A stretch of 64,000 bases of DNA from a virus (Duplodnaviria; Caudoviricetes), in the IMG/VR virus record IMGVR_UViG_3300014836_000320, positions 22,313 to 86,312 of that record; one strand, 5' to 3'. Every line of letters begins with the position of its first letter. Positions within the stretch are counted from its first letter, which is position 1. Shown in pieces: positions 19,024-38,692 of this stretch. The translations under genes and the position numbers were made by a program. The notes below the pieces were generated by a model. That model made no database searches. It was not told the origin of the DNA and was given only the letters and a program-made list of their open reading frames with translations.

Positions 19024-19058
19024 CATCATCTAAGGTTTGCAATCCTAGTCCTGCGGGC

Positions 19059-19066
19059 TATAAATA
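19059..19066 (+). promoter_or_regulatory. Consensus T4 late promoter TATAAATA inside an inverted repeat
   Basis: TATAAATA flanked by GCGG/CCGC and AATCCTAG/CTAGGATT. Confidence 0.7.
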
Positions 19067-19094
19067 ACCGCGTATATAATTCTAGGATTTCTAC

Positions 19095-19442
19095 ATGGAT
19101 CAACGACTTAATGATGCCTTGGCGTTTGCTAACTATCGCTTGACGCTACAGATACAGCGCCAAAACATCATGGCCAGGGTTGAAGCGGCCCTGCTTGTAT
19201 CACACCAAAATTCAATTTTTCGTGCGTCACCAGAACTCATTGGGTTTGTTGATGCACACTCCCGCTTGTCCAAAGAACCATTGATTGTCAACGATCAAAG
19301 CGACAATGCCATTATAATTGCAAATCCACAGGAATTCATTGAGCAATTGATCAAGGCCTACGATTCAGCAATGGTTCTAAAAAATCAAGAACAACAGCGA
19401 CTAAAGACAGCCAGAAATCCTGCTAAAATTGTGGGGTTGTAA
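19095..19442 (+). CDS. Hypothetical protein (possible tail-fibre-assembly-like adaptor)
   Basis: 115 aa, first gene of the coupled cluster. Confidence 0.6.
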   Translation: MDQRLNDALAFANYRLTLQIQRQNIMARVEAALLVSHQNSIFRASPELIGFVDAHSRLSKEPLIVNDQSDNAIIIANPQEFIEQLIKAYDSAMVLKNQEQQRLKTARNPAKIVGL

Positions 19443-20321
19443 ATGAGCAGTCGCGGATTCATGATGTTTGCCTACAACAACGAACAGTTGGATTATACCC
19501 AATTGGCCATTGTTGCGGCCTACGCAGTTAAAAAATACATGCCCGGCATGCCAGTGGTTTTGGTCACTAACCAAATGAGCGTGGACCAGTGCCGCGAACG
19601 CCACGGCGAAGAAATCATGCGAGCCGCTTGGGACGACATTGTCATGACCAATCCTGACTATCAGCAGAACATTCGTCTACATCACGACGGTGCCTACAAC
19701 AGTTTCAATGCACAGTTTACCAACACCAACAAGCACGATATCTACAATCTTTCGCCCTTTGACGAAACCATCCTTATTGACACAGATTACTTGTGTGGCA
19801 ATGACAATCTAGCCAAACTGTTTGGTGGACAGCACTCGGTGGCCATGTATCGAGACGCTATAAATCTACGCTGTGAAGAACCCTATACCACAGAACGTTG
19901 GCTACACTATGCAGGTATTCGCATGTGGTGGTCAACTGTGGTCTACTGGCGCAAGAGTGAAGAAGCACAACATTTCTTTAACGTTTGGTCCAGTGTAAAA
20001 CAACACTGGGAATACTATCGTTATCTCTACAAGTTTCCAGGCAGTCTCTATAGAACTGACTATGCGGCTTCAATTGCCGCACATCTCTGTGATGGCTGGC
20101 AAGATGGCGGATTCATTGGCAGAATTCCTTTGCCCATGCGCTATCAAGACCAGCGTGACGATGTGGTCAAAATCCTAGGCCCCAATCATTGGGTCATGCT
20201 CAGTAATTTGCCTGAAGAATGGAAAAACGTTGCAGTGGAAATCCGCGGCGAAGATGTTCACATGATGAACAAGAAAAGCATCTTACGCAACTATGACACT
20301 ATCATGGAGCAGTTGGCATGA
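19443..20321 (+). CDS. Glycosyltransferase-like protein (GT-A fold)
   Basis: SPFDETILIDTDYL (DxD) and WSTVVYW. Confidence 0.6.
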   Translation: MSSRGFMMFAYNNEQLDYTQLAIVAAYAVKKYMPGMPVVLVTNQMSVDQCRERHGEEIMRAAWDDIVMTNPDYQQNIRLHHDGAYNSFNAQFTNTNKHDIYNLSPFDETILIDTDYLCGNDNLAKLFGGQHSVAMYRDAINLRCEEPYTTERWLHYAGIRMWWSTVVYWRKSEEAQHFFNVWSSVKQHWEYYRYLYKFPGSLYRTDYAASIAAHLCDGWQDGGFIGRIPLPMRYQDQRDDVVKILGPNHWVMLSNLPEEWKNVAVEIRGEDVHMMNKKSILRNYDTIMEQLA

Positions 20322-21022
20322 CTGTATATGTTATTGACAATGCCAACAATCCAAGATTATTTGATGTCACGCAAGCAGACATCAAATTCCACAATCCGCA
20401 TCTAGGAGCAGAACGTTTGCCGGCCTACAGTGATCCTGCAGAACAGTTAAAATGTCTGCAGAGTTTGCCACTGGATGCTGGTGATATTATTTGTTTTGCT
20501 GGTATTGCTCTCAGACGACATACTTGGCTCATGAAAGACATTGCTGTAGAACGCAGTTGGAATCTCATGCCGGGTCAGACAGTTGATCATAGACTAGTGC
20601 CCATCGAAGCAGGAAAGACTTTTAAGCGGCGACCACAAGACATGAACAATCATGTAGGATCACCATATGTAATGATCATTGGCAATCCATTGACAGCCGT
20701 AGAGTCTTGGTCAATGATACAGAATTTTGCACCTGAAGATGTTTGGCCACAATACCTACCAGAACAGCCAACCATACATCATTGGCTCAGTGCCACTGCG
20801 GCTTTGTGCCCAGGCTGGTTGACTCCAGATTGGTTTCCAGTTGTTGACACCAGTGTTAGAGATTTAGAAATTGCACCAGTGATGTATGCCAGCAATCATT
20901 GGACAGATTGGATTGCCTTTTATCCAGCCAACGGAAACTTTAAACTGGAAAACCACAGCCAACTTTATCCTGTGTGGTTAGACGAAACAGAAAAACCATT
21001 GGAGTATTGGCACAATGAGTGA
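20318..21022 (+). CDS. Hypothetical protein, possibly a degenerate GT
   Basis: 234 aa, ATGA-coupled to the upstream gene. Confidence 0.5.
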   Translation: MTVYVIDNANNPRLFDVTQADIKFHNPHLGAERLPAYSDPAEQLKCLQSLPLDAGDIICFAGIALRRHTWLMKDIAVERSWNLMPGQTVDHRLVPIEAGKTFKRRPQDMNNHVGSPYVMIIGNPLTAVESWSMIQNFAPEDVWPQYLPEQPTIHHWLSATAALCPGWLTPDWFPVVDTSVRDLEIAPVMYASNHWTDWIAFYPANGNFKLENHSQLYPVWLDETEKPLEYWHNE

Positions 21023-21998
21023 AATTATTGATGATGGCATTCAGTTTGAACTTAGAAAACGCAAGAAAACTGGCCAAGACTTTTGGACAATTTACTATAA
21101 CACCACCAACGGAACCATTTTAAACATTGAACCAGGTCAAATGCAATCTCCAGAAACCCTGGTAATCAGTTATGTCAGAGTTAAAAAAATTCTGTCAGGT
21201 CAGGAAAATCAAAACAACTATCGCATAGACTACAATGAAAAACTTGGAGCACTAGATTTAATTGATCTTAGAAAACCTCAGGAATACAAAAAGAAAAAGC
21301 AAAATTGGCAAGTTTGGCTTAGCCAATCAGAATTCAGCGGAGATGCGTTTGCAGATCTACGAGCCACCCTGTTCCAAGAAAATGGAATGCTACGCATTGA
21401 AGCCAGTAGAGATTGGGGACAACAAACCAAAGAAAATCCCAACAGACTCAAAGACTTTGAGATTTACTTGTCAGACATTGAAGATCCTCATCTGGTGTTT
21501 GGCTTTAACAATATTCCTACTCAAGAAATCATTGAAAAGGGATTTTGGGAGTGTAGACTTTGGAGTTTTATGGATCACGGTCTAGTGCAAAATATCTTGT
21601 ATCACAATCAAAACATCAGACTAAATCTTCCCCCTGTTGCTCGATCAGTTTCATTTAAAAGATCCAAACAATACTTTCCTTTCAGCGGTATCATTGATGA
21701 TCAGACACTCATGAGTCATCCAGGGCCTGGACAACACATCAGCATTTTTGTTAAAAACAACTCTGTCTGGGCGCAGAGTCATTATGAAAAAGGTTCAAGT
21801 CTTGACAACATAATTGGAAACCTTCGTGCAGGACTGATCTGGCGCGACGACCCAGATAACTTTCTTGGTTGGGTTGAGTTTCCTGCTTTGATGTTGAGAC
21901 AACCTCAACCATTTGAATTGATCAGTGATTGGAACGATCCACACCCACCAAATCTATTATATAAAGCAAACAACATAGACATTGGAGTCTTACAATGA
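21015..21998 (+). CDS. Hypothetical protein
   Basis: 327 aa, coupled; weak internal duplication (..EDPHLVFG / ..DDPDNFLG). Confidence 0.5.
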   Translation: MSEIIDDGIQFELRKRKKTGQDFWTIYYNTTNGTILNIEPGQMQSPETLVISYVRVKKILSGQENQNNYRIDYNEKLGALDLIDLRKPQEYKKKKQNWQVWLSQSEFSGDAFADLRATLFQENGMLRIEASRDWGQQTKENPNRLKDFEIYLSDIEDPHLVFGFNNIPTQEIIEKGFWECRLWSFMDHGLVQNILYHNQNIRLNLPPVARSVSFKRSKQYFPFSGIIDDQTLMSHPGPGQHISIFVKNNSVWAQSHYEKGSSLDNIIGNLRAGLIWRDDPDNFLGWVEFPALMLRQPQPFELISDWNDPHPPNLLYKANNIDIGVLQ

Positions 21999-22966
21999 AA
22001 ACCCCTATCAGTGAATTTGATGTAGTGTTCATCAGTTACGATGAACCTAATGCCGACGAGAACTGGGCAGACTTATTAGAGAAGTGCCCGTGGGCCAAAC
22101 GCAGTCATGGCGTGTTTGGTAGTGATGCTTGCCATAAAGCCGCTGCCAAAATGGCAGAAACAGAACGATTTATCAGCATTGATGCTGACAACAAAGTGCG
22201 TCCTGACTTTTTTGAATTAGAACTTGATTTACACAAGTTTGATCGCAGTGATGTATTGTCTTGGTCAGGTAAAAATGTCATCAATGGCCTAGTCTACGGC
22301 AACGGCGGTGTTAAACTTTGGCCCAAGAAAGTTGTAGAGCAAATGAGAACACACGAAGCAGTGGATTCAGGCGCCGGTGCTGTTGATTTTTGTTGGGATA
22401 TTCACTATCATCAACTCAACAACATCTACAGCGATGTCTACAATAACTCAACACCATACCAGGCCTATCGTGCAGGATTTCGTGAAGGGGTGAAACTTGC
22501 ACTACACGACGGTCGTCCAATGGATTGGCGCCAAATCAAAGACAAGAATCACTACAAGAATCATCGTAGACTCTTGGTGTGGATGAGTGTTGGTGCCGAC
22601 GTTGACAATGGTCTTTGGGCCATGTATGGTGCTAGATTGGGCTGTTATCTAACCAACCTACATCGCGGCTGGGACTATACCCTAGTCAGAGATTTTGAAT
22701 GGCACACTCAGTATTGGAACGAAGATGTAGCACCAAGATTTGCCGGCGGCAATGAACGTTGTGTGCGTAGCAATTACACCTGGGACAGAGAAAAACTTCA
22801 ATCAGAAATTGTCAAACTTGGTCGCGCACTCAGACAAGATCTAGGCCTCGATATTGCCGAACTTGACGACGCCGGCAGCAAGTTTTTTAAAGCCAGTTAC
22901 TTTAATCCTCATAGACTTGGTCCACTAGTCAAAGAATCTGATGTTGAACAGTTTATTCTGGAATGA
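21995..22966 (+). CDS. Glycosyltransferase-like paralog 1
   Basis: FISYDEPNA, IDADN, YGNGGVKLW, GFREGVKL. Confidence 0.6.
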   Translation: MKTPISEFDVVFISYDEPNADENWADLLEKCPWAKRSHGVFGSDACHKAAAKMAETERFISIDADNKVRPDFFELELDLHKFDRSDVLSWSGKNVINGLVYGNGGVKLWPKKVVEQMRTHEAVDSGAGAVDFCWDIHYHQLNNIYSDVYNNSTPYQAYRAGFREGVKLALHDGRPMDWRQIKDKNHYKNHRRLLVWMSVGADVDNGLWAMYGARLGCYLTNLHRGWDYTLVRDFEWHTQYWNEDVAPRFAGGNERCVRSNYTWDREKLQSEIVKLGRALRQDLGLDIAELDDAGSKFFKASYFNPHRLGPLVKESDVEQFILE

Positions 22967-22969
22967 TCA

Positions 22970-23845
22970 ATGCTAGATGTCTTTTTTATTTCCATAGGTG
23001 AGGCCAATGCCGAAGATAACTGGAAAAAGTTAACACAGTTACGGCCAGATGCCAAGCGTGTGCAAGACGTCAAAGGCATCTATGAAGTTCATAAGACTTG
23101 TGCAAAAATCAGCACCACAGAAAATTTTTGGGTAGTTGATGCGGATGCTTGGGTTCTCAATGACTTTGATTTTGCTTGGGAGCCAGATGCCAATGTTCAT
23201 CACTGGAACGTGCCTGAACCCGAGTGTGTGTTAATTTGGCGCAGTCGCAATCCAGTCAACGACCTTGAATACGGATACGGCGGTGTCAAAATGTTTCCAA
23301 GACAACCGTTTATGGAAGATCGTGCCTGGCACATTGATCTATCAACAACCATTGGATCTGTCACAGTAGTCAAAGATCAACTCAGTTGTGAAACGCGATT
23401 CAATGCCACGCCTGAAAGTGCTTGGATTGGTGGATTTAGAGAGTGTGCTAAACTAGCATCATTGACTTCGGTGTGCGGTCGTATTCAACGTAAAAATTAC
23501 AGTATGATGGAAGAATTAGAAGAACTAGAGCGTTACATTGCCACGCAAGACTGGACAGCAGAACAACGCACAGCCTATCGCAAAGGTAAAAAGGCTGTTA
23601 TCATTGACAGTTACAAATACGAAACAAACATCTACAATTACTTTGGCGACATAGAAACAGCCGCTGATCGTTATAGTGCTTGGTCACGTTACGGTTGGCA
23701 TAGATACAACGGGCAGTATGCAGTATTAGGTGCTCAAGCAGGAGTCAAGTATGGATTAAAGAATGCCAGCAACCTGCAGGCAATGAACCAAATCAATGAT
23801 TGGAATTGGTTACGACAGGAGTTCAAAAAACATGTCAATGTTTAA
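22970..23845 (+). CDS. Glycosyltransferase-like paralog 2
   Basis: FISIGEANA, VDADA, YGYGGVKMF, GFRECAKL. Confidence 0.6.
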   Translation: MLDVFFISIGEANAEDNWKKLTQLRPDAKRVQDVKGIYEVHKTCAKISTTENFWVVDADAWVLNDFDFAWEPDANVHHWNVPEPECVLIWRSRNPVNDLEYGYGGVKMFPRQPFMEDRAWHIDLSTTIGSVTVVKDQLSCETRFNATPESAWIGGFRECAKLASLTSVCGRIQRKNYSMMEELEELERYIATQDWTAEQRTAYRKGKKAVIIDSYKYETNIYNYFGDIETAADRYSAWSRYGWHRYNGQYAVLGAQAGVKYGLKNASNLQAMNQINDWNWLRQEFKKHVNV

Positions 23846-24809
23846 AGTTAAACCAACTGCTCAGAGTTTCAAACCCAGCAATAGAATGATTCGAGACATC
23901 CCTGTGGTGTTTTTAAGTTTTGATGAGCCCAACGCAGATCATCACTGGGAATTGTTGCAAAAAGTAGTGCCACATTCCAACATTGCCCGAGTGCATGGAG
24001 TCAAAGGATTTGATGCCTGCCACAAAGCCGCTGGCAATGCATTTCCTTGGAGCGACTATGTTATCACTGTAGACGCTGACAATCAAATTGATCCTGAGTT
24101 CTTTAACAAAACTGCGCCACAGCAGATCACGTTAGGCATGACTTTTACCTGGGGCGGCCGCCAATTTACCAATGGCTTGATGTATGGCAACGGTGGACTC
24201 AAAATGTGGAATCGAGATCACTTGTTGAACATGCGTAGTCACGAAGCATCTGACAACGAAAGAGATGCTGTTGACTTTTGCTGGGACTTTCAACAATACA
24301 AAGAAGTTCCAGGTTGTTATTCAACTGTTTATACCAACGGCAGTCCTTATCAAGCATTTCGTGTGGGCTTCAGAGAAGGTGTAAAATTGTCAATGGAACA
24401 AGGACAGGTCATTGATCCGGAACGAATCAGCAAAGACATGCATGCCGCTAACTTTCAACGATTGCTGACTTGGATGACTGTGGGTCGAGATGTAGAACAC
24501 GGTGCCTGGAGCATGTATGGCGCCAGACTAGCGGCCAAGATGTTGTATTTTGATGATTTTGATTTTACTTTGATCAGAGATTACGATTGGTTCATTGACT
24601 TTTTTGAACAACACAAAAACAAAGAAATTATCACTGAACTTACCACACTGAGTGTAAAATTGCAAGACGTGTATGGATTCAGACTTCCTGGGTTTACCGC
24701 TGATGAAAGTCGCATGCTCAAAATGCTACAACTGCATCCTGAAAAACCTTTGACCTATGAAGATGTGCGTTGGAGAACCAACTTGGGCATGTTTGGATGG
24801 TTCAAATGA
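23838..24809 (+). CDS. Glycosyltransferase-like paralog 3
   Basis: FLSFDEPNA, VDADN, YGNGGLKMW, GFREGVKL; start chosen at the ATG overlapping the upstream stop. Confidence 0.6.
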   Translation: MFKVKPTAQSFKPSNRMIRDIPVVFLSFDEPNADHHWELLQKVVPHSNIARVHGVKGFDACHKAAGNAFPWSDYVITVDADNQIDPEFFNKTAPQQITLGMTFTWGGRQFTNGLMYGNGGLKMWNRDHLLNMRSHEASDNERDAVDFCWDFQQYKEVPGCYSTVYTNGSPYQAFRVGFREGVKLSMEQGQVIDPERISKDMHAANFQRLLTWMTVGRDVEHGAWSMYGARLAAKMLYFDDFDFTLIRDYDWFIDFFEQHKNKEIITELTTLSVKLQDVYGFRLPGFTADESRMLKMLQLHPEKPLTYEDVRWRTNLGMFGWFK

Positions 24810-26032
24810 CAGAAGAACAAATCTTAGAAGCCAAGATTGCCATCCTCTATTTCATTGAAGAAGCCTGCGGCTATCGTCACAGTCTGCATTGGCTTAGACG
24901 CTGGATGGAAAGTGGTCAACAAAGCGACCTAGAACATCTCATTATTGAAATTGGTCGAGAAAATTTCTACGACTTCAAGCGGTTAATTCAAGCAACGCAG
25001 GGCGACAATGATGCTCGTTGGGAGATGATGTCAATTTTGACTCAACGTGGTATCATAGTTCCTGATGAATGGAAGCCAGTGCGCGAAGAAGAAGGCTCGT
25101 TACTAGAGCAGGATATAGTGTTGACCTCAGCACCAGAAGCAATGATTCACAGTATGCAGTTTGGTGAGCAGGATTTTAATACTGCTATCGGCAACACATG
25201 GAACGTGTTTAATTGGATTCAAGAAAACAAAAAAAATTATCCTGAACTAGATCCCATGGGGATCTTGGCCTATGCGATGGAAAAACTTTACAACAGTCAA
25301 AGCAATGTCTATGAAGTGTGTTACTTTATTAGAATGCTGTTGGGCAAAGGCACACTGATAGAAAATACCATCAATGAAGACCTAGAACTTTTTGCCAAAA
25401 ACGTTGGCAATTATTTTGCTGACCAAGAATGGGTAACCAAAAATCTCATGTTGGCTATTCAAAATGGTCCAGAAGAAAACTGGAAGGATGCGCTCAGTAG
25501 AAACCAAGTTAAAAGTAAAATTTGGTTGCTGGACAAACTCGAAAGCACTGGCTGGTTTACACAAAAGCCAACAGTGACCAAAGAAAATCCCACAATGGTT
25601 TTGGTTGGGGGTTGGGTTGGATTACTGCCTTTTATTGCGGCAGTTCGCAATCAAAAACTAGGTGCAGTGATCAATGTTGACATAGACGAATCAACACATT
25701 TGCCAGCCAAGGTTTTAAATGGTCAGCACTACACTGAATTTAGAAATCTAGCCAAAGACATAAGAACACTTGACTTCAACAAGTTTAAAAACTTTGTCAT
25801 AGTTGACACCATTGTTGAACATTTTGAAAATCATGCAGAATGGATACAAAGTCTGCCCGCAGGAACCAAACTTATATTGCAAGGCAACGACATGTTTGAT
25901 GTGCCAGACCATGTAAACTGTCATCATAACTTGGATGAGTTTGTTGACACCTGCGGCCTAGCCAAAGTTATTTGGCAAGGCGAACTCACAATGCCAGGTT
26001 GCACAAGATTTATGGTAATTGGCACAACATGA
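24806..26032 (+). CDS. Protein with C-terminal class I SAM-dependent methyltransferase-like domain
   Basis: MVLVGGWVGLL, VINVDID, IVDTIVEH; ATGA overlap at 24806. Confidence 0.55.
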   Translation: MTEEQILEAKIAILYFIEEACGYRHSLHWLRRWMESGQQSDLEHLIIEIGRENFYDFKRLIQATQGDNDARWEMMSILTQRGIIVPDEWKPVREEEGSLLEQDIVLTSAPEAMIHSMQFGEQDFNTAIGNTWNVFNWIQENKKNYPELDPMGILAYAMEKLYNSQSNVYEVCYFIRMLLGKGTLIENTINEDLELFAKNVGNYFADQEWVTKNLMLAIQNGPEENWKDALSRNQVKSKIWLLDKLESTGWFTQKPTVTKENPTMVLVGGWVGLLPFIAAVRNQKLGAVINVDIDESTHLPAKVLNGQHYTEFRNLAKDIRTLDFNKFKNFVIVDTIVEHFENHAEWIQSLPAGTKLILQGNDMFDVPDHVNCHHNLDEFVDTCGLAKVIWQGELTMPGCTRFMVIGTT

Positions 26033-26547
26033 GCAAATTAAGATATTATAGAACAGATGCCAAAATAGATCTAGAACGTCTGCTGGTAGAAGCCAATGCC
26101 TTGGCCTGGGACGATACAATCAAGCAGTATCGTCCTCAAACTGCTGTGCAAAATGCCGACGGCAACGAAGACTACCTCGAAGGCACAGGATCAAAACCTG
26201 GTCAAACAGACGACAAGTGGGCCAATCTACGAAGCGATTTATCAAACACCTGGTGGGAAACATTTTTTGCCAGTTTGCCTTGGCGTGTGTATAGAACCAG
26301 AATTATGATAATGCCGCCGCGAAGTTGCTACAGCATACACAGCGATACCAGCCCTAGGTTGCACATTGCGTTAAAAACACATCCGCAGGCCAAGTTCATT
26401 TTTACCAATCCACCAGAACTGGTTCATGTTCCTGCTGATGGATATGTTTGGTGGGTTGATACTCGTGAGGAGCACACAGCCATCAATGCCAGTATGGAAC
26501 CACGTTGGCACCTGCTATTAAGCCTGGTAAACACACCAGACCATTAA
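26029..26547 (+). CDS. 2OG-Fe(II) dioxygenase, aspartyl/asparaginyl beta-hydroxylase-like
   Basis: RIMIMPP..YSIHSD..RLHI..VDTREEHTAIN..RWHL (HxD...H). Confidence 0.7.
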   Translation: MSKLRYYRTDAKIDLERLLVEANALAWDDTIKQYRPQTAVQNADGNEDYLEGTGSKPGQTDDKWANLRSDLSNTWWETFFASLPWRVYRTRIMIMPPRSCYSIHSDTSPRLHIALKTHPQAKFIFTNPPELVHVPADGYVWWVDTREEHTAINASMEPRWHLLLSLVNTPDH

Positions 26548-26563
26548 ACGGCTACATAATGAC

Positions 26564-27208
26564 ATGTCACTATATGTAGAAATTTCCAATGCCGAAACCT
26601 TTGATAGCCATTTACCGGCCTACGAAACCTTTTTGCGTCGAATTGCCGCTGAATCCAGAGAAGAAAACAAAGTATTGGTCAACATGGGTTGGGAACCACC
26701 CAGTGGTCTATTGTATCTGATTCAACCAGAGCGAGATCAATATCGTCGATGGACACAAGGACAGGGCGAAATTGCATTGCTCTATGATAGACTCACTGGC
26801 GGTATTGTTGGCATCAGCGCAGTAGAGCATAGCCTACTCAGCGACAACATCAGTTCAGGTGGAAATCGTTGCTGGCTACAACGCGAATATAGACTCAACA
26901 ACGAAGTTTCAAAACATCTGTTGGCCAGCAATTTTGCCTGGACTCAAAAACAAAACAAAATTGGCATGATGCTGACATTCAATCAGTATAACAAAGGCAT
27001 CTACGACATTATTGTTCATAGAACACAAGGTAAAAAGGTCTCCATTGGCAAAGTATGGAGCAATTGGTGGGACGACTGTGTGCCTATACAAAAGAAAATT
27101 TTATTACACAATGTTCCACAGTGGGCAGTTATAAAACCCAATGCAGACCGGAGTATGATCCACGACGAGGTCCAAGAACTAACAGAACTATATGGTGTTG
27201 ACGAATGA
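26564..27208 (+). CDS. GNAT-like acyltransferase
   Basis: IVGISAV..NRCWLQREYR resembles the GNAT beta4/motif A region. Confidence 0.45.
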   Translation: MSLYVEISNAETFDSHLPAYETFLRRIAAESREENKVLVNMGWEPPSGLLYLIQPERDQYRRWTQGQGEIALLYDRLTGGIVGISAVEHSLLSDNISSGGNRCWLQREYRLNNEVSKHLLASNFAWTQKQNKIGMMLTFNQYNKGIYDIIVHRTQGKKVSIGKVWSNWWDDCVPIQKKILLHNVPQWAVIKPNADRSMIHDEVQELTELYGVDE

Positions 27209-28155
27209 TACAAAACACACTTAACAATCATTTGACTTATTGGTATAATGATGATGAAAACCAACGTTGGCGCAAAGACCCCAACGACTATACATCAATG
27301 CGTGTTGGTGGCTGTAGCAGAGCACCTTTTTCTGCAAAAATTGAATGGACTAGAATTGCGCGGCTACTGATTGATCAATATCCTGATCTCACAATTTTTA
27401 TGAGCGGCGGACTTGACAGTGAAATTGCACTTCGCTGTTTTTTGGCCGCAGGCATTAAACCAAAACTTGCAACCATACGTTTCCCTGATGACAAGAATGC
27501 CTACGATATTGCTCCCATGATTGATCTGGTCCAGCAAGAATGGGGGTTAGATGTTTCTGTCATTGACTTTGATCCTGAAGAGTTTTGCCTGAGCGGAGAG
27601 TATCTAGCAATTGCTGAAAAGTATCAGGCCTATACATTTTACCAACAGATTTTGCTTAAGGTTGCCGAAGACTATTCTGCGCCAATGATCACTGTTGATG
27701 AAGTTGAATTGGAAAAACTGCCCGCAGTCAACTACGACACTGGCGAGGTCATGTGGCGTTGGACATTTTTAAAGAAAGAAGACCAAGACGGTGTCTGGAG
27801 AAGATTTGCTGACAAAACAGGAATACCAGCGTTGAACAATTTTTATACCTACACACCAGAAAGCATGTTGGCATTCCTTAGGCTACCTACCACAGCCGCC
27901 TTGATTCGAGATCAGATCCCATTCAAGTTGAGTTGGACCAGTAGCAAAATGAAAATTTATTCAGAGGCCGGGTTTAAATTTAGAATGCGACCCAAATGGC
28001 ACGGGATGGAAAACTACATGCACTTGTGGGACTTTGTGAAGTCAAACCAACACACTAGTCTATTAGGATGCAACCCTCAATCTTATACAATTCCAGCATT
28101 GGAGTTGGAAGAAAATTTAGCAAAAGGAAGAATCAGCCAATGCAGTATTCTATAA
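27205..28155 (+). CDS. PP-loop adenine nucleotide alpha-hydrolase (asparagine-synthetase-like)
   Basis: IFMSGGLDSE. Confidence 0.65.
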   Translation: MIQNTLNNHLTYWYNDDENQRWRKDPNDYTSMRVGGCSRAPFSAKIEWTRIARLLIDQYPDLTIFMSGGLDSEIALRCFLAAGIKPKLATIRFPDDKNAYDIAPMIDLVQQEWGLDVSVIDFDPEEFCLSGEYLAIAEKYQAYTFYQQILLKVAEDYSAPMITVDEVELEKLPAVNYDTGEVMWRWTFLKKEDQDGVWRRFADKTGIPALNNFYTYTPESMLAFLRLPTTAALIRDQIPFKLSWTSSKMKIYSEAGFKFRMRPKWHGMENYMHLWDFVKSNQHTSLLGCNPQSYTIPALELEENLAKGRISQCSIL

Positions 28156-28787
28156 AACCATTGGATCACGACCAACTTGGCGTGGTAACCAAACTAGCCA
28201 ATGAAATTTATAACGGACTAGATGAAGACAAGTATCCTGACTTTAGAGTAGGCTACGATATCAATGCTGAAGAAAATCGAGAAAAATATTTTGGCATGTT
28301 CATGCTTCCTTCACATTTCATTGGTTTTACTCAGCGAAGAGCCTATGGTGTATTTGACGAAAACAATCAACTGATTTCCGCAGTTGGTGTTCGTCGTTAT
28401 AGTCACATGCCTTGCTGGAGTTTAAGTTGGCTATTGAGTCCTAAAATTGGTGCTAGATTTATTCCTTTGTTTAGATACATGGTTGATGAACTGTGTAAAA
28501 TTCATGAAACAGCAGGATTCAATGAATTGCTGGTCACTTATCCCAGTTCCAGAGAAGAAGCCTACAGTAGAATCATGTTGTTCATGCGTGAACGGTATTT
28601 TACATTTGTAGAAACCACTATTCCTGCAAAAACAGTCAGTGCTTTTGAATTCATTCACGAACTGTCTGGAAAAACGTTACACCCGCACGACATCAATCTG
28701 AGAAGATACATACTGCGTAGAGAAGATATGACCCCCGCCAGTGAAGGCGGACAAGCAAAAAGAAAAATAAAACAAGACAATGATTGA
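28140..28787 (+). CDS. GNAT-like protein
   Basis: AYGVFDENNQLISAVGV..WSLSWL; alpha/beta pattern typical of GNAT. Confidence 0.35.
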   Translation: MQYSIKPLDHDQLGVVTKLANEIYNGLDEDKYPDFRVGYDINAEENREKYFGMFMLPSHFIGFTQRRAYGVFDENNQLISAVGVRRYSHMPCWSLSWLLSPKIGARFIPLFRYMVDELCKIHETAGFNELLVTYPSSREEAYSRIMLFMRERYFTFVETTIPAKTVSAFEFIHELSGKTLHPHDINLRRYILRREDMTPASEGGQAKRKIKQDND

Positions 28788-29691
28788 TACTACTGTAAAA
28801 ACCTGGCTTGCTGACCAGTGGGATTTATATGCCAAAACTCGGCAAATTCCTTACATTGTTGCACTATGGCTTCCATACCATATTCTTGGTATTGGTGCTA
28901 TTTTATTTGCATTGGCCACTGAGTGGAGTTGGTGGTATCCAGTATGGGCTGTTTGCGGCTGGATTCTACTGGACGGCGTAGGCAACAACCTAACACTACA
29001 CAGATTCCTAAGTCACCGCAGTTGGCAACCCCGCAAGTGGATGGAACCCTTTTTACTTTGGGCGGCAACAATGACTGCCGAGGGCTCACCAATTTGGTGG
29101 GCGGCACTACATCGCGGTCATCACCATAGAGTCAGCGATCAAGAAGGCAAAGATATCCACACACCTGTGGGCAATGGCTGGTGGCACAGTTACATGGGTT
29201 GGCAGTTTGGCATCAAGCAAGACTCAGTGAGTTTCCGCCATGCAGTAGATCTATTGCGTGATCGTAGGCTGGTGTTTATTCACGAAAACTACAACAAGAT
29301 CATCTATGGAACTTTGCTGTTGAGTTGGTTACTGTTTGGTTTGACTTTTACCATTTGGTTCTTTATTGTTGGCGCACTGATGAGTCTACATGCTGACGGA
29401 TTGGTAAACACATTTGGACATGTGCCTGGTGCTGGTTACAAGAACTTTGAAAACCGTGATGCCAGCACCAATGTATGGTGGATTGGTTATTTTCATTGGG
29501 GCTCAGGTTGGCACAACAATCATCACAGAGAGCCCAGCAGTTTTGATTTTGGTTCAACAGTCAGTGGTAGAAAGTTTGAGTTTGATCCTTGTTTCTTGAT
29601 AGTATGGCCATTTGCTTCTACAACGGAATTAAAGAGGTTGTGGAGCAATCGTAAAAATGCTATACTCAAGAGACAAGGAACATCAGCATGA
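28780..29691 (+). CDS. Membrane fatty-acid desaturase (delta-9 type)
   Basis: His boxes HRFLSH, HRGHH, HNNHH; hydrophobic segments. Confidence 0.9.
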   Translation: MIDTTVKTWLADQWDLYAKTRQIPYIVALWLPYHILGIGAILFALATEWSWWYPVWAVCGWILLDGVGNNLTLHRFLSHRSWQPRKWMEPFLLWAATMTAEGSPIWWAALHRGHHHRVSDQEGKDIHTPVGNGWWHSYMGWQFGIKQDSVSFRHAVDLLRDRRLVFIHENYNKIIYGTLLLSWLLFGLTFTIWFFIVGALMSLHADGLVNTFGHVPGAGYKNFENRDASTNVWWIGYFHWGSGWHNNHHREPSSFDFGSTVSGRKFEFDPCFLIVWPFASTTELKRLWSNRKNAILKRQGTSA

Positions 29692-30569
29692 CTTTACGAA
29701 CAGAAATTGATTTTGAGCAAGACAAAACTTACCTTCCAGTCCTGGATCACGGATTTGTTGGTTTAGTTGATCACATGGGATCAGATGCGGCCATTGTGCA
29801 GGCCGCTAGAGTCAGTTATGGAGCCGGCACCAAACAAGTGCAGGATGACCGTAACCTAATTCGTTATCTAATGCGGCACGAGCATACTACGCCATTTGAA
29901 ATGTGCGAAGTCAAGTTTCACCTCAAGTTACCCATCTTTGTGATGCGACAACTTGTTAGACACAGGACAGCCAGCCTAAATGAATATTCCGCTAGATATT
30001 CTGTTATCACAGATGAATTCTACATACCTGATGCCAAAAACCTTAAGCCGCAGAGTTCAACCAATAAGCAGGGTCGAGAAGGAGAACTCGACAGTATCGC
30101 ATCAAACCACACCATCTACGATATGCGACAAGCATGGGATAGTAACTACGAACTCTATGAACGCTTTATCAACGACTTTGGCCTGGCGAGAGAAACTGCT
30201 AGACAGATCTTACCGGTGGGTGGATACACCGAGTGTTATTGGAAAGCAAATCTAAAGAACTTTCTGCATATGGCACGACTTCGTATGGATAGTCATGCAC
30301 AATGGGAGATTCAAGAATTTGCCAGAGCCATGTATGCATTGGCTCAACCATTGTTTCCTGAAGCCTGTCAAGCATTTGAAGATTATCAACAAAATGCTGT
30401 CAAATTCAGTGCCCAAGACCTAGCATTACTCAAACGTATAATCAACAGAGAACGTTGGTTTGATCTGGAACAAGATTTTCGTGACGACAAAGGCATTGCC
30501 AAATCTTTTGGCATGAGTCAGCGAGAAGTCGTTGAGTTCAAACAAAAGTTAAACTTGGATGCTCTATAA
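29688..30569 (+). CDS. thyX: FAD-dependent thymidylate synthase
   Basis: AARVSY, HTTPFE, RHRTASLNEYSARY. Confidence 0.95.
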   Translation: MTLRTEIDFEQDKTYLPVLDHGFVGLVDHMGSDAAIVQAARVSYGAGTKQVQDDRNLIRYLMRHEHTTPFEMCEVKFHLKLPIFVMRQLVRHRTASLNEYSARYSVITDEFYIPDAKNLKPQSSTNKQGREGELDSIASNHTIYDMRQAWDSNYELYERFINDFGLARETARQILPVGGYTECYWKANLKNFLHMARLRMDSHAQWEIQEFARAMYALAQPLFPEACQAFEDYQQNAVKFSAQDLALLKRIINRERWFDLEQDFRDDKGIAKSFGMSQREVVEFKQKLNLDAL

Positions 30570-31440
30570 GATCAGTGATCAACCTTTTTTGAGATTTGAC
30601 CAGCATCTAGATATTCCTGGATTGTTGGATCTCAAAGAAGAACTTTGCCATGCTTTCACTGAGGCTTGGTTAGGGCTTGGCAAAGGAAACCAAGCATTGC
30701 CATCAGTGGCAGGTCATCCAGCCAATTGGCCAAACAGCAACAGCAATGTTGAGGAAGTGTATCTTCCTCACTATGAAGGGCAGGAACTGGCAGGAGCACT
30801 ACATCAGACTCTCAAAGACCAGTCTGCTCCCGGGCATGCTCGTGTTAAATCTTTTGTAGAAAATGGTCACCCCAGTTACGCATACATGTTTTTAAAACTG
30901 CTGGGTAATAATCAAGGCATTGGCTATCAAATGTTTATCAGACAGCCAACAACCAGCAATTATGCAGAAAAGCATCTGGCAGACAAAACCAAAGATTCAT
31001 TGTATTATGACAGGTTTACTTTTTTCCTAGATTGGGTTAAAAAGCAAAAAATATTTTCTGAGATTGGTCGTGTGGTCGTCTTCTTCAATGACCAGCATCA
31101 GTTTTGCCTAGTGCATAGAGATCACAATCAATTCAATGTAGTGGAAAATCCAGATGAGTTTGTTTGGTTCAATGTATTTCCGGATCGCAAACGTTTTTAT
31201 GTGCTAGATGGTGAAACCGGAGAAAAGCACTACTTTGACAACCATGCAATTTGGTTTGACACAGCAAACTGGCACGGCAGTGATCCTTGTGCGTTTGCGG
31301 CATTTACAATTCGTGTTGACGGAGTCTTTACCAAAACTTGGCGTAAGAAGATTGGATACAAACCAAAAGTCACAGAAGAAAAGAAGGTTCCTAAGAAACC
31401 TTCTAAGTCTAAAAACATGTGGAGTCAGGCTAAGGACTAA
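30559..31440 (+). CDS. 2OG-Fe(II) dioxygenase-like protein
   Basis: GRVVVF..LVHRD..WFDTANWHG. Confidence 0.5.
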   Translation: MLYKISDQPFLRFDQHLDIPGLLDLKEELCHAFTEAWLGLGKGNQALPSVAGHPANWPNSNSNVEEVYLPHYEGQELAGALHQTLKDQSAPGHARVKSFVENGHPSYAYMFLKLLGNNQGIGYQMFIRQPTTSNYAEKHLADKTKDSLYYDRFTFFLDWVKKQKIFSEIGRVVVFFNDQHQFCLVHRDHNQFNVVENPDEFVWFNVFPDRKRFYVLDGETGEKHYFDNHAIWFDTANWHGSDPCAFAAFTIRVDGVFTKTWRKKIGYKPKVTEEKKVPKKPSKSKNMWSQAKD

Positions 31441-32497
31441 GTTCTTTAGTGGCAGTTAAACCACCCTGCTCGTTTTCCCACAAGAATCCCCAGGCATTGT
31501 TGTATCTGGTAATGGTAGGCAAACTAGGCCACTTGGTTTTGTGTAGCAGGTAGTTTTGATTGGGCCAAATATCATAGATCAGTTTCTTTGCTGGTAGTTT
31601 GTAACTGGCCCAAGTATCTCCCAACTTGGGTTCTTTGGTATATAGAGCCCAACGTTGAAATTCTTCTGTATCAAAAAAGTTCACAACCTGACGAGCCATT
31701 GCTACTGCCTGTTCCGCAGTAGGAGCATGCATGCTCATACGATACTTCACAGCCTGCCACTTCATGGTAAAGTTTAACCACCATAGAAAGTCGTGATTGG
31801 AATCTAAAGGTATAGGACAGGCATTGACCAAATTGTAAAGCATTTGTTCACGTTCATCTCTGTGCTCTTTGACTTTGTCTAAGAGCCAAACTAGACTGCC
31901 AGTTGTCCAAGGATTATGGATGTCATTGTAGTTTAGTGTAGAGTCCATGTAACTCTTCAGAGTCAAACTACCAAACAGATTATCAGCACATTCACCAGTG
32001 ACACACAGGTAGCGAGGATTTGACACAATATCATAAAATCTGTTGCTGTTGATCAAGCAATGGCCAAAATTTGGCAATATCACTTGTTTGAAAAAGTCAG
32101 GGTTTTCAATCTGACTGTCTTCGTTGAATGCCAACAGCACATGGTCGCGGATGTCATTCCAATAAGGACTTGCTATAAGGAGACAAACAATCAGCGTGGA
32201 ATCAATGCCACCTGAATACATGATCACCAACTTGTCAAGATTTTCATCTTGTTTGAAGCGAGCAATGATATCGCTCATGCGCTGATTAGCACAGGCTTCA
32301 AATGACATAGCCAACCCTGGACTGGGCATAGGGCTATTGTTGTGGATTTCAATCCCTGGCACATTTAGTGTGCCAGTCCTATCACTTAAACTGATCCAAG
32401 GATTAAACATTCGTAAGAAACTGATTTCTGGTGGATCAATTTCTTGTGCAATGTTGCTGTTGATCAGACGGTGTGGAATATAATAGAGTAAATTCAT
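31430..32497 (-). CDS. PP-loop ATPase, asparagine-synthetase-like
   Basis: IMYSGGIDST and VTGECADNLFG; start at TAATG overlap. Confidence 0.7.
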   Translation of the reverse strand: MNLLYYIPHRLINSNIAQEIDPPEISFLRMFNPWISLSDRTGTLNVPGIEIHNNSPMPSPGLAMSFEACANQRMSDIIARFKQDENLDKLVIMYSGGIDSTLIVCLLIASPYWNDIRDHVLLAFNEDSQIENPDFFKQVILPNFGHCLINSNRFYDIVSNPRYLCVTGECADNLFGSLTLKSYMDSTLNYNDIHNPWTTGSLVWLLDKVKEHRDEREQMLYNLVNACPIPLDSNHDFLWWLNFTMKWQAVKYRMSMHAPTAEQAVAMARQVVNFFDTEEFQRWALYTKEPKLGDTWASYKLPAKKLIYDIWPNQNYLLHKTKWPSLPTITRYNNAWGFLWENEQGGLTATKELSP

Positions 32498-33123
32498 TAC
32501 ATTAACATACTCAAAAATGCATCTTCGTCCATAGCGGCTCTTGCCTGGGCAAATTCTATTTTGTTTGAGGCACAACGAATAGCCTCTTGATGCTTGATAC
32601 GCAGGTATTCAAGTTTTCTAATCATGTCTTGTTGATTCATTGATTTGACAGTGATCATCCTGGCAGCAACTTCTAGGTCAAGCCCTGCGGCATCAGCATA
32701 ATCTTGAATGAATCCAATGCTTTCAGGATCACGAATACCTCCCAGCACAGACCAAGCCTGTTGTGTTTTGTATTGATAGGCTTCTTGTTGCCACGGCACC
32801 ACATCAGCGAATCGTTTGTAACCGTGAGCAATACGCTGATGAAGTTCACCAACTAAACTTACTCTGGCTCGTAGGATCTGACTGAGTTCTTCAATCTCTG
32901 TGGGTTTCTTGGCACCAATCAATGATGTGTTTCTGGGCCCAGAAAATTTAATTTTAAAGTCAACATTGTTGTTTTTGAGTTGCTGGTATTCAACATCGTC
33001 GACACCATAAATTCTACAGATGGCTCTGAATTCGCTACCGCAGGCACTTTCCAACAAAGACAAACTTTCGTGCCAGGCCAAAACATAGTTGTCGGCCGTG
33101 CAGGCCAATGCTATCCAATTCAT
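32497..33123 (-). CDS. Hypothetical protein; C-terminus resembles tail-fibre assembly proteins
   Basis: WQQEAYQYKTQQA..YADAAGLDLEVAARMITVK. Confidence 0.45.
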   Translation of the reverse strand: MNWIALACTADNYVLAWHESLSLLESACGSEFRAICRIYGVDDVEYQQLKNNNVDFKIKFSGPRNTSLIGAKKPTEIEELSQILRARVSLVGELHQRIAHGYKRFADVVPWQQEAYQYKTQQAWSVLGGIRDPESIGFIQDYADAAGLDLEVAARMITVKSMNQQDMIRKLEYLRIKHQEAIRCASNKIEFAQARAAMDEDAFLSMLM

Positions 33124-33171
33124 TTCTTCACCTTAGTTGTGAAATATATAGTCAATGTTATTTGACAGATT

Positions 33172-33705
33172 TTACCGACCAAATATATCTGGAGTGAATC
33201 TAGCACTCAACATCAATCGGCGGTGCTCGCGAGATTGATTGATCACTTGGTGTGGTATATCAACGCGGACTACAGTAGGACGATCTACTATAACGGATTT
33301 AATGACTCTGGGTTCTTCTTGCCAGTTCAGTTTTAGATACTTTAGTCCTTGTCCATTGGCAGTTTCGTCAAGATTAAATTTGCCACCATACCAAAGCATT
33401 TCACCCACTTCGGTGATTGGCAAATTCAATGCCCAATTGCTGGCTCCAATTCTTTGAGCAGTGAAACCATCAACATGGAGTTCCTGAATGTTTTCAGGCG
33501 ACTGTGCAAACACAATGGCACTTTTGATTTCATGATCGTGGCCTGTGATTTTCTTGACCTGATTGCAAAGCATAGAACCAACCCAAGCCAACTCTTCGTT
33601 TTTGAGAATATAAGATTTTTGGCCATCGACGTCCGGCATCAAGTGCTGGAAACGAACTTTGATCATGGGCCAGGTTACAATGTCAACGTGTTTGTATAAA
33701 AGCAT
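33172..33705 (-). CDS. 2OG-Fe(II) dioxygenase-like protein
   Basis: ELHVDG..WALNLP..VRVDIPHQV..RLMLSARF. Confidence 0.55.
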   Translation of the reverse strand: MLLYKHVDIVTWPMIKVRFQHLMPDVDGQKSYILKNEELAWVGSMLCNQVKKITGHDHEIKSAIVFAQSPENIQELHVDGFTAQRIGASNWALNLPITEVGEMLWYGGKFNLDETANGQGLKYLKLNWQEEPRVIKSVIVDRPTVVRVDIPHQVINQSREHRRLMLSARFTPDIFGR

Positions 33706-33710
33706 GTTTT

Positions 33711-33752
33711 TATTTAGTCGTGGTCAACAATCATATTATGAGCATATAAATA
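33711..33752. promoter_or_regulatory. Divergent pair of late promoter cores: TAAATA (-, 33711-33716) and TATAAATA (+, 33745-33752)
   Basis: Each lies 5 nt from an ATG (33705 on -, 33758 on +). Confidence 0.6.
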
Positions 33753-33757
33753 CCTGG

Positions 33758-34228
33758 ATGGAGAGTTTAATGGAACATATCGTAGTCTTTTTTGCATGGA
33801 CACTTTATCTATATGTCATACACAGAGCGATTCACGCAGTTGGAGTAAAATATTTTCCAATAGCGTTCCAGGCGCATGCAGACCATCATAGATACATCAA
33901 CACACATGCTAAAACCACCTGGCATTGGAACAATTTGTTTTTGTTCAATGATACCTGGATGAGCACACTTGACTTATGGATTACTGAAGTAATACCCACC
34001 TTGATCTTTAGTTGGATAACTGGCTACTGGTGGGTCAGCGTATTCTACTACTTCTGGGCGGCATTTGTTCAAGAGATAATTGAACACAATCCAGACTTTG
34101 ACATGTATCCTGTGCTTACAAGTGGAAAGTGGCATCTGGTTCATCACCGAGATACCACTGTCAACTTTGGCCTGTTTGTTCCACTATGGGATAGGCTATT
34201 TGGAACCTATCGCCGTCATGTTGGTTGA
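33758..34228 (+). CDS. Sterol desaturase / fatty-acid hydroxylase family membrane protein
   Basis: HRAIH, HADHH, EHN, HLVHH, NFGLFVPLWDRLFGT; alternative start at 33770. Confidence 0.85.
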   Translation: MESLMEHIVVFFAWTLYLYVIHRAIHAVGVKYFPIAFQAHADHHRYINTHAKTTWHWNNLFLFNDTWMSTLDLWITEVIPTLIFSWITGYWWVSVFYYFWAAFVQEIIEHNPDFDMYPVLTSGKWHLVHHRDTTVNFGLFVPLWDRLFGTYRRHVG

Positions 34229-34941
34229 GTTTCAAACCTTTTAGAACTTCCTGAGCGTTCAACCCAATCGTAAAAACTGTTGATTGATTTCTTGGGATTA
34301 TCTATTTCGTGCTCAATGACAACAGGCCAAATTTCAAACCAATGTCGAGTCACTAGACCTTTGCTGGCGCCATATGCGGCATTGGTTGGATGAAATTTTA
34401 GTTTAATGATGTTGCCAGGCATCACGTAACTTTGGCTGGGTCCATTGATAACACCGTGTGCATCTAAGTTTGCCCATGCATGCTCAATGGCATTGATAAA
34501 CTCTGGCACTTTGAACTCTTGGAACAACTTCCATTGACCGCCAATGTATTTCCAAACACTCATAACAACGTGTCTGCCTTTGTAACTTAAAGTATCAATG
34601 AAGATAGTGTCTTCTTCCACTGGCAAGTTTAGGTAAGAACTTTTGCGTTTATCAATGTATCCGGGTATGTTGACATTACATAGTGCAATCTGGTCATTGA
34701 TAGATTCTAAAAATTTGTGGCCTTCTTGATCCCACGCCACAGCAGACATAATTTTTAAACTGCGGTCCCACTCTTCTTTGGCCAAATCAATGATTCTAAC
34801 ATTTGAAAGATCTGCCGGAACTGTGCCAGACTCTAGTGTTCGTCCATTGGTCAACAGCACAGCAACTTCAGAGTTTTTGACTTTAAATGCAGGAATAATT
34901 CTAGTGGCTATTTCTGATGGATTGATAAAAAGAATTTTCAC
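34216..34941 (-). CDS. Hypothetical protein, possibly a degenerate ATP-grasp fold
   Basis: IDTLSYKGRHVVMSVWKY and GVINGPSQSYV; GTG start. Confidence 0.35.
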   Translation of the reverse strand: MKILFINPSEIATRIIPAFKVKNSEVAVLLTNGRTLESGTVPADLSNVRIIDLAKEEWDRSLKIMSAVAWDQEGHKFLESINDQIALCNVNIPGYIDKRKSSYLNLPVEEDTIFIDTLSYKGRHVVMSVWKYIGGQWKLFQEFKVPEFINAIEHAWANLDAHGVINGPSQSYVMPGNIIKLKFHPTNAAYGASKGLVTRHWFEIWPVVIEHEIDNPKKSINSFYDWVERSGSSKRFETQPT

Positions 34942-38337: not shown

Positions 38338-38368
38338 GGTGGCTCCTATGTTTTCAGCGTATGTATCT

Positions 38369-38397
38369 ATTATAGTGCAATTTTGGATTAAGGTCAA
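38369..38397 (-). promoter_or_regulatory. sigma70 promoter
   Basis: TTGACC-N17-TATAAT. Confidence 0.75.
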
Positions 38398-38402
38398 CCA
38401 TT

Positions 38403-38690: not shown

Positions 38691-38692
38691 AC

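Follow-up and report, generated by a model that had tools for sequence, protein, structure and literature searches.

A conserved glycosyltransferase and methyltransferase island behind the fiber genes of a jumbo myovirus and its possible role in late glycan tailoring of the virion

Introduction

What would a bacteriophage do with a block of glycosyltransferases, a methyltransferase, oxygenases and lipid enzymes set directly behind its tail-fiber genes, and on which molecule would they act? This question is raised by a 64,000-nt stretch of viral DNA (Duplodnaviria; Caudoviricetes), positions 22,313 to 86,312 of the IMG/VR record IMGVR_UViG_3300014836_000320, referred to below as the window; genes and open reading frames (ORFs) are named by their first position in it. 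A sequence-only reading of the window had described a late-expressed tailoring-enzyme cluster here. In our analysis the cluster proved to be attached to the baseplate/fiber module, conserved and equipped with a promoter-type motif, but it contains an ordinary nucleotide-pool gene (ThyX), and its proposed last member, 34216, lies outside. Late glycan tailoring of a virion protein by this fiber-adjacent island is the reading that we prefer, at a rough probability of 0.45, somewhat short of even odds.

The window comes from an 86-kb virus record with a CheckV completeness of 26%. An identical copy of one window protein was found on a separate 332-kb contig, and the genome is therefore about 330 kb in size. 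The phage is an uncultured jumbo myovirus, of which the window is a fragment.

Results

A fixed enzyme cluster behind the baseplate and fiber genes

Upstream of the cluster, the window encodes a gp25-like baseplate wedge gene (start 1227), proteins of 1047 and 2997 aa, a 205-aa protein conserved among Rak2-like jumbo phages, a 365-aa protein with a C-terminal match to structural/baseplate proteins of PA5oct and Atu_ph07, and a 1139-aa fiber protein that carries a subtilase domain (ORF 15604-19023). These genes form a baseplate/fiber module, in agreement with the earlier placement of the cluster directly behind fiber genes. Fifteen co-directional plus-strand ORFs then span 19095-31440. Given plausible internal ATG starts, adopted for five genes whose listed TTG/ATG starts overlap the preceding gene, no junction in this 15-gene run shows an overlap of more than 16 nt or a gap wider than 16 nt. 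Three minus-strand genes (31430-33705) converge on the run and are followed by one plus-strand and one minus-strand gene (Table 1).

The region was compared by tblastn with 80 related IMG/VR loci. ORFs 15604 through 33659 are collinear in ~30 long loci among them; protein-level conservation and collinearity identify the cluster ORFs as real genes. The layout described before, 15 tightly packed plus-strand genes and then convergent ones, agrees with these data, and co-conservation with the fiber/subtilase genes, which had been proposed as a check, holds from 15604 to 33659 but does not reach 34216. Median amino acid identity among the relatives is 75-85% for the cluster enzymes, compared with 36-56% for the fiber and subtilase proteins. 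Constraint on the enzymes is thus much stronger than on their structural neighbors.

By sequence comparison, the region splits into a widely shared glycosyltransferase/methyltransferase module (module A, 19095-26547) and a separable module B (26564-28787 and 30559-34228). Across all 20 ORFs of the cluster region, four exceeded a Pfam cut-off (26029, 28780, 29688 and 33758), and PHROGs recognized only ThyX and the desaturase, the latter through the unnamed phrog_35201. Membrane-like segments occur only in the desaturase and the hydroxylase; module A proteins are without any.

Table 1. Features of the cluster region in window coordinates, with median amino acid identity in relatives where available
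Position	Strand	Feature	Basis or remark	Median identity
19024-19094	+	Intergenic region with TAAATA promoter-type hexamer	Hexamer at 19061-19066, 34 nt before the first start	
19095-19442	+	Small 115-aa protein heading the operon	Conserved down to RsoM2USA gp354	
19443-20321	+	GT8-like GT-A candidate (glycogenin/lipopolysaccharide glycosyltransferase type)	Invariant DxD (D113, D115)	81%
20318-21022	+	234-aa protein, clade-only conservation	Comparison of relatives	
21015-21998	+	327-aa protein, clade-only conservation	No Pfam match in 12 family members	
21995-22966	+	Predicted GT-A glycosyltransferase, paralog 1	DAD and GNGGxKxW motifs; AlphaFold2, structure search	85%
22970-23845	+	Predicted GT-A glycosyltransferase, paralog 2	36% identical to paralog 1	
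23832-24809	+	Predicted GT-A glycosyltransferase, paralog 3	44% identical to paralog 1	
24797-26032	+	Two-domain protein: clade-specific helical N-terminal domain, predicted C-terminal class I S-adenosylmethionine methyltransferase fold	AlphaFold2, Foldseek, VIA	
26029-26547	+	Asp/Asn beta-hydroxylase-like cupin, putative Fe(II)/2-oxoglutarate oxygenase	PF05118, 24.6 bits against a cut-off of 22.6	
26564-27208	+	214-aa protein	55 clusters, without Pfam and confined to phage-like contigs	
27205-28155	+	PP-loop ATP pyrophosphatase-type enzyme (SGGLDS)	Motif and family searches	
28140-28787	+	Possible GNAT acyltransferase	Lead only	
28780-29691	+	Membrane delta-9 (SCD/DesC-type) fatty-acyl desaturase, three His boxes	PF00487, 58 bits	75%
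29688-30569	+	ThyX flavin-dependent thymidylate synthase	PF02511, 188 bits; phrog_85	
30559-31440	+	Candidate Fe(II)/2-oxoglutarate oxygenase, motif only	H186, D188, H239, R252 invariant	
31430-32497	-	Stand-alone asparagine-synthetase-type PP-loop domain (SGGIDS)	Weak Asn_synthase match	
32497-33123	-	208-aa protein, co-transcribed with both minus-strand neighbors	Comparison of relatives	
33172-33705	-	Candidate Fe(II)/2-oxoglutarate oxygenase, motif only	H77, D79, H152, R163 invariant	
33758-34228	+	Small membrane di-iron fatty-acid hydroxylase family protein	PF04116, 47.8 bits	77% (as ORF 33659)
34216-34941	-	Protein outside the conserved cluster	Homolog in 1/80 loci	

Module A encodes three related glycosyltransferases and a methyltransferase

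Three module A proteins, 21995, 22970 and 23832, are mutually 27-44% identical. None reached the cut-off of Glycos_transf_2 (PF00535), the best score being 13.6 bits versus 23.3; the weak match in 23832 is located at its DxD. AlphaFold2 modeling of 21995, built on 76 diverse relatives, yielded a structure with a predicted local distance difference test (pLDDT) score of 96.2. Residues 2-150 of this model align to GT-A structures, with B4GALNT1 matched by VIA at Z 10.8 and a root-mean-square deviation (rmsd) of 3.0 over 143 residues; the next VIA matches were a Leptospira glycosyltransferase, SpsA, WrtF and TarP, and Foldseek gave RmlT, TarP and PBCV-1 A64R among its matches. The model contains a Rossmann-like alpha/beta/alpha nucleotide-binding domain, and its C-terminal helical half is family-specific. 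Across the 76 sequences the DxD aspartates D63 and D65 show at least 90% conservation or invariance, and the DAD form is present in all three paralogs. Modeling and structure search confirmed 21995, 22970 and 23832 as paralogous glycosyltransferases of predicted GT-A fold. The start of 23832 is probably the ATG at 23832 or 23838, and this paralog is absent from two relatives (L048 and L053). In metagenomes the family is represented by over 7,700 clusters at 90% identity, all of them lacking a Pfam match and a name, and by 1231 clusters at 50% identity; in about 15 clusters its domain is fused to a GT-B (GT1/GT28) domain.

A fourth candidate glycosyltransferase, 19443, has no Pfam match. Its nearest named ESM Atlas clusters are Glyco_transf_8, Mannosyl_trans3 and Nucleotid_trans (score 0.95), and its family profile retrieved glycogenin-1 in 11 of 11 PDB matches, with a weak E value of 0.11 and an alignment across the DxD. 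These two leads are weak and concordant, and weakly suggest a GT8-like protein; RsoM2USA gp353 is 33% identical to it. No relation between the GT8-like and GT-A families was found by hhalign. Four GT-A-like proteins had been counted in the sequence-only reading: AlphaFold2 and structure search back three of them, whereas for 19443 there are only the two GT8 leads. For the adjacent gene 20318, an apparent 98% hhalign match to the GT8-like family was an artefact of tandem GT8-like duplicates that had been added; the clean test gave a probability of 0.2%, and no kinship to the GT8-like protein was detected. In distant phages, the slot of 20318 (L087:4982-6428, L092:3789-5257, L109:5751-7162) holds a tandem duplicate of the GT8-like gene.

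A methyltransferase had also been proposed, and the analysis of 24797-26032 agrees at the level of the fold. Its AlphaFold2 model (pLDDT 91.6) gave 438 Foldseek matches at E < 1e-3, all of those listed being S-adenosylmethionine (SAM)-dependent methyltransferases or close relatives of the same fold, and VIA superimposed model residues 219-409 on NTMT1, NodS and RebM (Z 15.2, rmsd 3.0, 175 residues). In 22 sequences G270, W271, D293 and D295 are invariant, corresponding to the Gly-rich motif I and the acidic residue after strand 2. Modeling confirmed the C-terminal ~190 residues as a predicted class I SAM methyltransferase fold. The hydroxylase gene that follows, 26029, is still present in L076, a relative without module B.

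Module A is shared with distant jumbo phages and its core with bacteria

Megablast of the cluster region against phage genomes gave zero matches. By tblastn, the only deposited phage with the GT-A glycosyltransferase family is the cultured Ralstonia phage RsoM2USA (344 kb), in which gp354-gp347 are the counterparts of 19095, 19443, a 21995-type glycosyltransferase, a 22970-type glycosyltransferase (gp348) and the methyltransferase domain (gp347), behind the phage's own baseplate, sheath and structural genes. The module A core stays behind homologs of the baseplate genes 13782 and 14458 both there and in about 12 distant jumbo-phage contigs, which keep the order 13782 - 14458 - 19095 - 19443 - glycosyltransferase with a glycosyltransferase identity of 36-58%. 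Baseplate genes and module A were seen together on contigs L087 (PBPT01000016.1, 335 kb), L083/L084, L092/L093, L109, L151 and L155/L162, filed in metagenome-assembled genomes (MAGs) of Neomarinimicrobiota, Gammaproteobacteria, Rickettsiales, Fischerella, Legionellales and Haliscomenobacter. Bacterial-MAG contigs with this gene combination are probably misbinned phage genomes.

Bdellovibrionota chromosomes carry a 22970-type glycosyltransferase, a 21995-type glycosyltransferase and a methyltransferase-like gene side by side, adjoining GT2 and PMT_2 genes, and the methyltransferase domain of 24797 is common to RsoM2USA gp347 and these bacterial genes. In Rhodobacterales chromosomes the family adjoins GT4 genes, and in Roseibium it directly follows one. 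Because two glycosyltransferases and the methyltransferase are common to RsoM2USA and Bdellovibrionota, gene content indicates that they are the conserved functional unit, to which the GT8-like gene and the 19095 protein are added in phages.

In RsoM2USA and the distant phages, no gene from 26564 onward is present. Two relatives, L074 and L076, lack both flanks of module B and retain 26029, ThyX and module A; from this joint absence, module B appears, on weak evidence, to be gained or lost as one unit. Its absence from all these genomes would also fit a region with no single pathway, a plastic island of unrelated auxiliary genes behind the fibers in which only the glycosyltransferase/methyltransferase core is functional. 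ThyX in the middle of the cluster and the sporadic occurrence of 34216 and of the accessory gene 30559 (present in 13 relatives) point the same way, and comparable hyperplastic regions have been described in T4-like aquatic phages. Yet order and content are invariant in ~30 loci whose fiber proteins have diverged as far as stated above, the module B flanks are lost together, and a similar enzyme mix stands beside the fibers of the unrelated phage Mosig. We regard this reading as quite unlikely.

A promoter-type motif links the cluster to the baseplate genes

The promoter previously placed at the head of the cluster was the octamer TATAAATA, which is not enriched in the window (2 copies versus 1.6 expected). 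What stands is the hexamer TAAATA, which is positional and common to the cluster and the baseplate genes. It is depleted about two-fold in the window (16 observed versus 31.6 +/- 5.6 expected), and 10 of the 16 precede a start on their own strand by 11-67 nt, namely those of gp25-like 1227, 13782, 14458, 19095, 33172 (minus strand), 33758 (plus strand) and four minus-strand genes farther along. The divergent pair 33172/33758 has its hexamers at 33711-33716 and 33747-33752, each 11 nt upstream of the respective start. Most of 35 distinct relatives retain the core TAAATAAC, though not the octamer, ahead of their 19095 homolog. As judged from these positions, the cluster consists of three units bearing a promoter-type motif that is also found at baseplate genes, and by analogy to T4 it would be expressed late.

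Most TAAATA sites, including those at 1215, 13770, 33711, 33747, 40996, 41888 and 42572, are only 11-14 nt before the ATG. This spacing leaves no room for a ribosome-binding site, so many late-type genes may be leaderless. Upstream of the operon (19030-19090), TAAATAA forms the apical loop of a two-tier hairpin of ~50 nt in relatives, as at the homologous sites in L010, L012, L044, L069 and others. Both stems vary in sequence yet stay paired (GTACGTTG/CAACGTAC versus ATGCGCTG/CAGCGCAT), with folding energies of -15 to -27 kcal/mol. Compared with mononucleotide shuffles, z was below -2 in 21 of 27 sequences (median -5.2), and the window's own copy was weaker (z -1.4). RNAalifold found no consensus structure in an alignment that was out of register; the hairpin is seen in single-sequence folds. 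It could be a processing/termination site for the fiber transcript or a structured promoter.

Candidate amide-forming, oxygenase and lipid enzymes of module B

A desaturase and a sterol-desaturase/hydroxylase had been named, and both were upheld by family matches: 28780 additionally matches human and mouse SCD1 (E 2e-12) with its His boxes aligned and hydrophobic segments present, and 33758 belongs to PF04116. For the two proposed PP-loop ATPases, the SGGxDS motif stands and is invariant in family alignment A3, while their enzyme class, drawn from family members that match Asn_synthase or NAD_synthase, is more weakly supported. The 27205 family profile retrieved NAD synthetase from the PDB at the PP-loop (E 0.05), and a pooled Pfam scan found NAD_synthase in 8 members. 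The 31430 protein itself scored 14 bits with Asn_synthase against a cut-off of 21; 14 pooled members of its family match this model (best 2e-5) and many homologs carry PF00733. With 355 aa, 31430 is without the N-terminal Ntn glutaminase domain of asparagine synthetase B and matches only the synthetase portion of that enzyme. QueC was rejected as an identity for the PP-loop genes, which showed no QueC-type match and resemble the AsnB/NadE type; the WbuX/PseA N-acetyl sugar amidotransferase (TIGR03573) had no match in the contig at E <= 10.

Among the three HxD..H dioxygenases of the sequence-only reading, 26029 passes PF05118, whereas 30559 and 33172 show the conserved HxD..H..R only, with no Pfam or PDB profile support and no relation to each other by hhalign. 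Its two GNAT-like proteins fared differently. A language-model lead remains for 28140, which scores 0.96 in the ESM Atlas against viral clusters, some of them with Acetyltransf_1 or named N-acetyltransferase, and which has no Pfam match in 12 members; 26564 found no support, having neither a Pfam nor a PDB profile match nor an hhalign relation to 28140-28787. Acetyltransf was found in none of 23 members of both candidates. Single-family searches of the contig with 2OG-FeII_Oxy_3, Acetyltransf_1 and WbuX gave no match, at a sensitivity no better than that of hmmscan, and PDB profile searches with 24770, 30559, 33172 and 26564 returned nothing meaningful.

ThyX lies inside the cluster and had been missing from the earlier list of enzymes. 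It is an ordinary nucleotide-pool gene, a passenger within the operon, and its product is ordinary deoxythymidine monophosphate, which counts against the idea that the glycosyltransferases glycosylate modified bases of phage DNA. That idea draws on the presence of ThyX in the operon and on the fact that phage glycosyltransferases often act in this way (reviewed in PMC12619734). It appears very improbable here: in bacterial chromosomes the homologs belong to glycan clusters, the phage genes are part of the structural and not the replication module, and no ThyA-type hydroxymethylase is present in the 86 kb, which is 26% of the genome.

The ATP-grasp protein suggested at 34216-34941 could not be substantiated, with no Pfam match even at E <= 1-10 and a homolog in only one of the related loci. 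Farther downstream on the minus strand, 37132-39796 encodes a MoxR-type AAA ATPase and then a DUF2201 metallopeptidase/VWA protein, a conserved pair in phages, and 41004-41882 encodes a radical SAM protein that has a TAAATA box to itself. In 14 of 80 bacterial/MAG loci, distant homologs of this protein (weak, 21-30% identity) lie within a few kb of the GT-A glycosyltransferase family.

Discussion

Virion protein or host envelope as the target

In late glycan tailoring of a virion protein, module A would act as a soluble glycan-building line made up of the GT8-like protein, three GT-A paralogs that keep their DxD, the class I methyltransferase and the cupin hydroxylase. From nucleotide sugars it would build a short methylated oligosaccharide on a phage protein during particle assembly, the likeliest acceptor being a baseplate or fiber component encoded just upstream. 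A possible source of the donor sugar is an NAD-dependent sugar-nucleotide epimerase/dehydratase about 21 kb downstream (55415-56413, minus strand; PF01370, 152 bits). Hydroxylation, or attachment to Tyr, Ser or Thr, may be the first step. Module B would contribute two PP-loop enzymes of the adenylating, amide-forming kind, one possible acyltransferase, the two oxygenases recognized by motif only and a pair of membrane di-iron lipid enzymes, the delta-9 desaturase and the hydroxylase, and would either elaborate the same product further or alter a membrane lipid. We infer which molecule is the acceptor, when and in what order the enzymes act, and any link between modules A and B. A virion protein is suggested by the promoter class, by the fixed position in the baseplate/fiber module and by mycobacteriophage and chlorovirus precedents.

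Several observations weigh against a virion acceptor. The glycosyltransferase pair with its methyltransferase in Bdellovibrionota and the family in Rhodobacterales occupy envelope-glycan-type settings, and it is not obvious what the desaturase and the hydroxylase, both membrane lipid enzymes, would do on a virion protein. The authors of the closest published islands favor host O-chain modification (PMC7029224). XacN1, reported as the nearest relative of RsoM2USA (PMC8504454), was not among the tblastn matches for the glycosyltransferase family, so the module would be dispensable for such a virion type.

Host glycans or lipids are the alternative target, to which the settings of the bacterial homologs and module B's membrane lipid enzymes point. 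The soluble glycosyltransferases and methyltransferase would then act on lipid-linked or lipopolysaccharide (LPS)/capsule intermediates, while an LpxO/OlsC-type hydroxylase, the desaturase and the fatty-acid hydroxylase would modify the acyl chains of the membrane or of lipid A; the changed cell surface would result in superinfection exclusion or keep progeny from sticking to debris. PF05118, the family of 26029, also includes lipid hydroxylases, two enzymes of the cluster are integral-membrane lipid enzymes, and bacterial homologs of the glycosyltransferase family lie among GT2, GT4, GT28-like and PMT_2 genes. In phage Mosig, Asp_Arg_Hydrox adjoins FA_desaturase beside the fibers. Envelope remodeling has already been proposed for the host recognition clusters of pelagimyophages, in which GT8 is read as a typical LPS family (PMC7029224). 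Set against these points, the promoter motif is common with structural genes and a late stage would be an odd moment for rebuilding the surface, the location within the baseplate/fiber module is strictly kept across deep divergence, and Pfam and membrane-segment scans of the cluster genes revealed no flippase, ligase or Gtr-type membrane component. We consider remodeling of the host envelope the main rival explanation, possible but less likely than not.

A candidate acceptor in the fiber protein

The C-terminal domain of the fiber protein (ORF 15604-19023) contains a hypervariable (Tyr-Gly-Gly)n loop, with 16 units in the window (18664-18810). Of 40 relatives with sequence at this site, 36 have a tract of at least 3 units; the total is 3-24 units, sometimes split into two or three tracts, and the loop always lies between conserved LLYTSP and SSRLKLYG segments. 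Glycogenin is a tyrosine glucosyltransferase, and as the best match of the GT8-like protein it makes this loop a suggestive candidate acceptor. Module A would then be a line for tyrosine or serine glycosylation in which 19443 primes the poly(Tyr-Gly-Gly) loop and the GT-A paralogs and methyltransferase lengthen the glycan and cap it; hydroxyl, amide or acyl groups would come from module B, and the resulting glyco-adhesive tip would set the host range. Distant phages have module A without a 15604-type protein, and the scheme in full is a long shot. A strict link between the Tyr-Gly-Gly tract and module B was also considered and fails, since L072 has module B and a short loop.

Significance

To our knowledge, mycobacteriophages and giant eukaryotic viruses are the only viruses in which virion glycosylation has been demonstrated to date. 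A baseplate or fiber glycosylated by this island would mean that it is widespread among environmental Gram-negative phages, with a bearing on host range and on evasion of recognition; were the envelope the target, phages would have in this cluster a conserved set of tools to rewrite the glycans and lipids of the host envelope. A glycosyltransferase family without a Pfam model ranks among the most strongly conserved genes in a jumbo-phage clade that is abundant in fresh and marine waters. The core module is present in RsoM2USA, a cultured phage, and the question is therefore directly testable. The description of the cluster as an uncharacterised system is fair for its function, but islands of this kind have been published (PMC7029224; PMC12619734). 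New here are the fixed, strongly conserved architecture, the large unannotated glycosyltransferase family with a methyltransferase partner that is shared with Bdellovibrionota, and the separable module B.

Comparison with known systems

The GT-A domain of PBCV-1 A064R is among the Foldseek matches (2p6w, E 2e-3). A064R, which serves the chlorovirus capsid glycan, has two glycosyltransferase domains and a methyltransferase domain, an architecture that parallels the conserved triad of two glycosyltransferases and a methyltransferase. The genes are separate here and form one polyprotein there, the similarity is at the level of the fold only (TM ~0.2-0.3), and PBCV-1 is a eukaryotic virus. Mycobacteriophage glycosyltransferases, for which virion glycosylation has been reported (Freeman 2023, as cited in PMC12619734), share with the present proposal the mechanism of phage-encoded glycosyltransferases decorating virion proteins. 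Host and phage type are different, and according to the citing article glycosylation was shown there by mass spectrometry, whereas the system described here is known from genes alone. Moraphages, an aquatic jumbo-phage lineage, have four putative core glycosyltransferase orthogroups, and virion glycosylation is mentioned as an option for them (PMC12619734); as described, they may offer a parallel to the present glycosyltransferases.

The closest counterpart is the host recognition cluster of pelagimyophages and cyanomyophages (Zaragoza-Solas et al. 2020, PMC7029224), likewise an island in the structural module by the tail fibers that is rich in glycosyltransferases, GT8 being the commonest, and in auxiliary enzymes. 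The cultured Pelagibacter phage Mosig encodes Asp_Arg_Hydrox, FA_desaturase, an N-acetyltransferase, methylases and 2-oxoglutarate dioxygenases beside its fibers; such an enzyme mix next to the fibers thus recurs in unrelated phages. The host recognition cluster is hypervariable and non-syntenic, whereas the present cluster keeps a fixed order and content in ~30 loci, and no genes in its neighborhood are better conserved than the enzymes. The carrier differs as well, being a ~330-kb jumbo myovirus related to RsoM2USA and Rak2-like phages and not a member of the Kyanoviridae, with a glycosyltransferase family that is unannotated.

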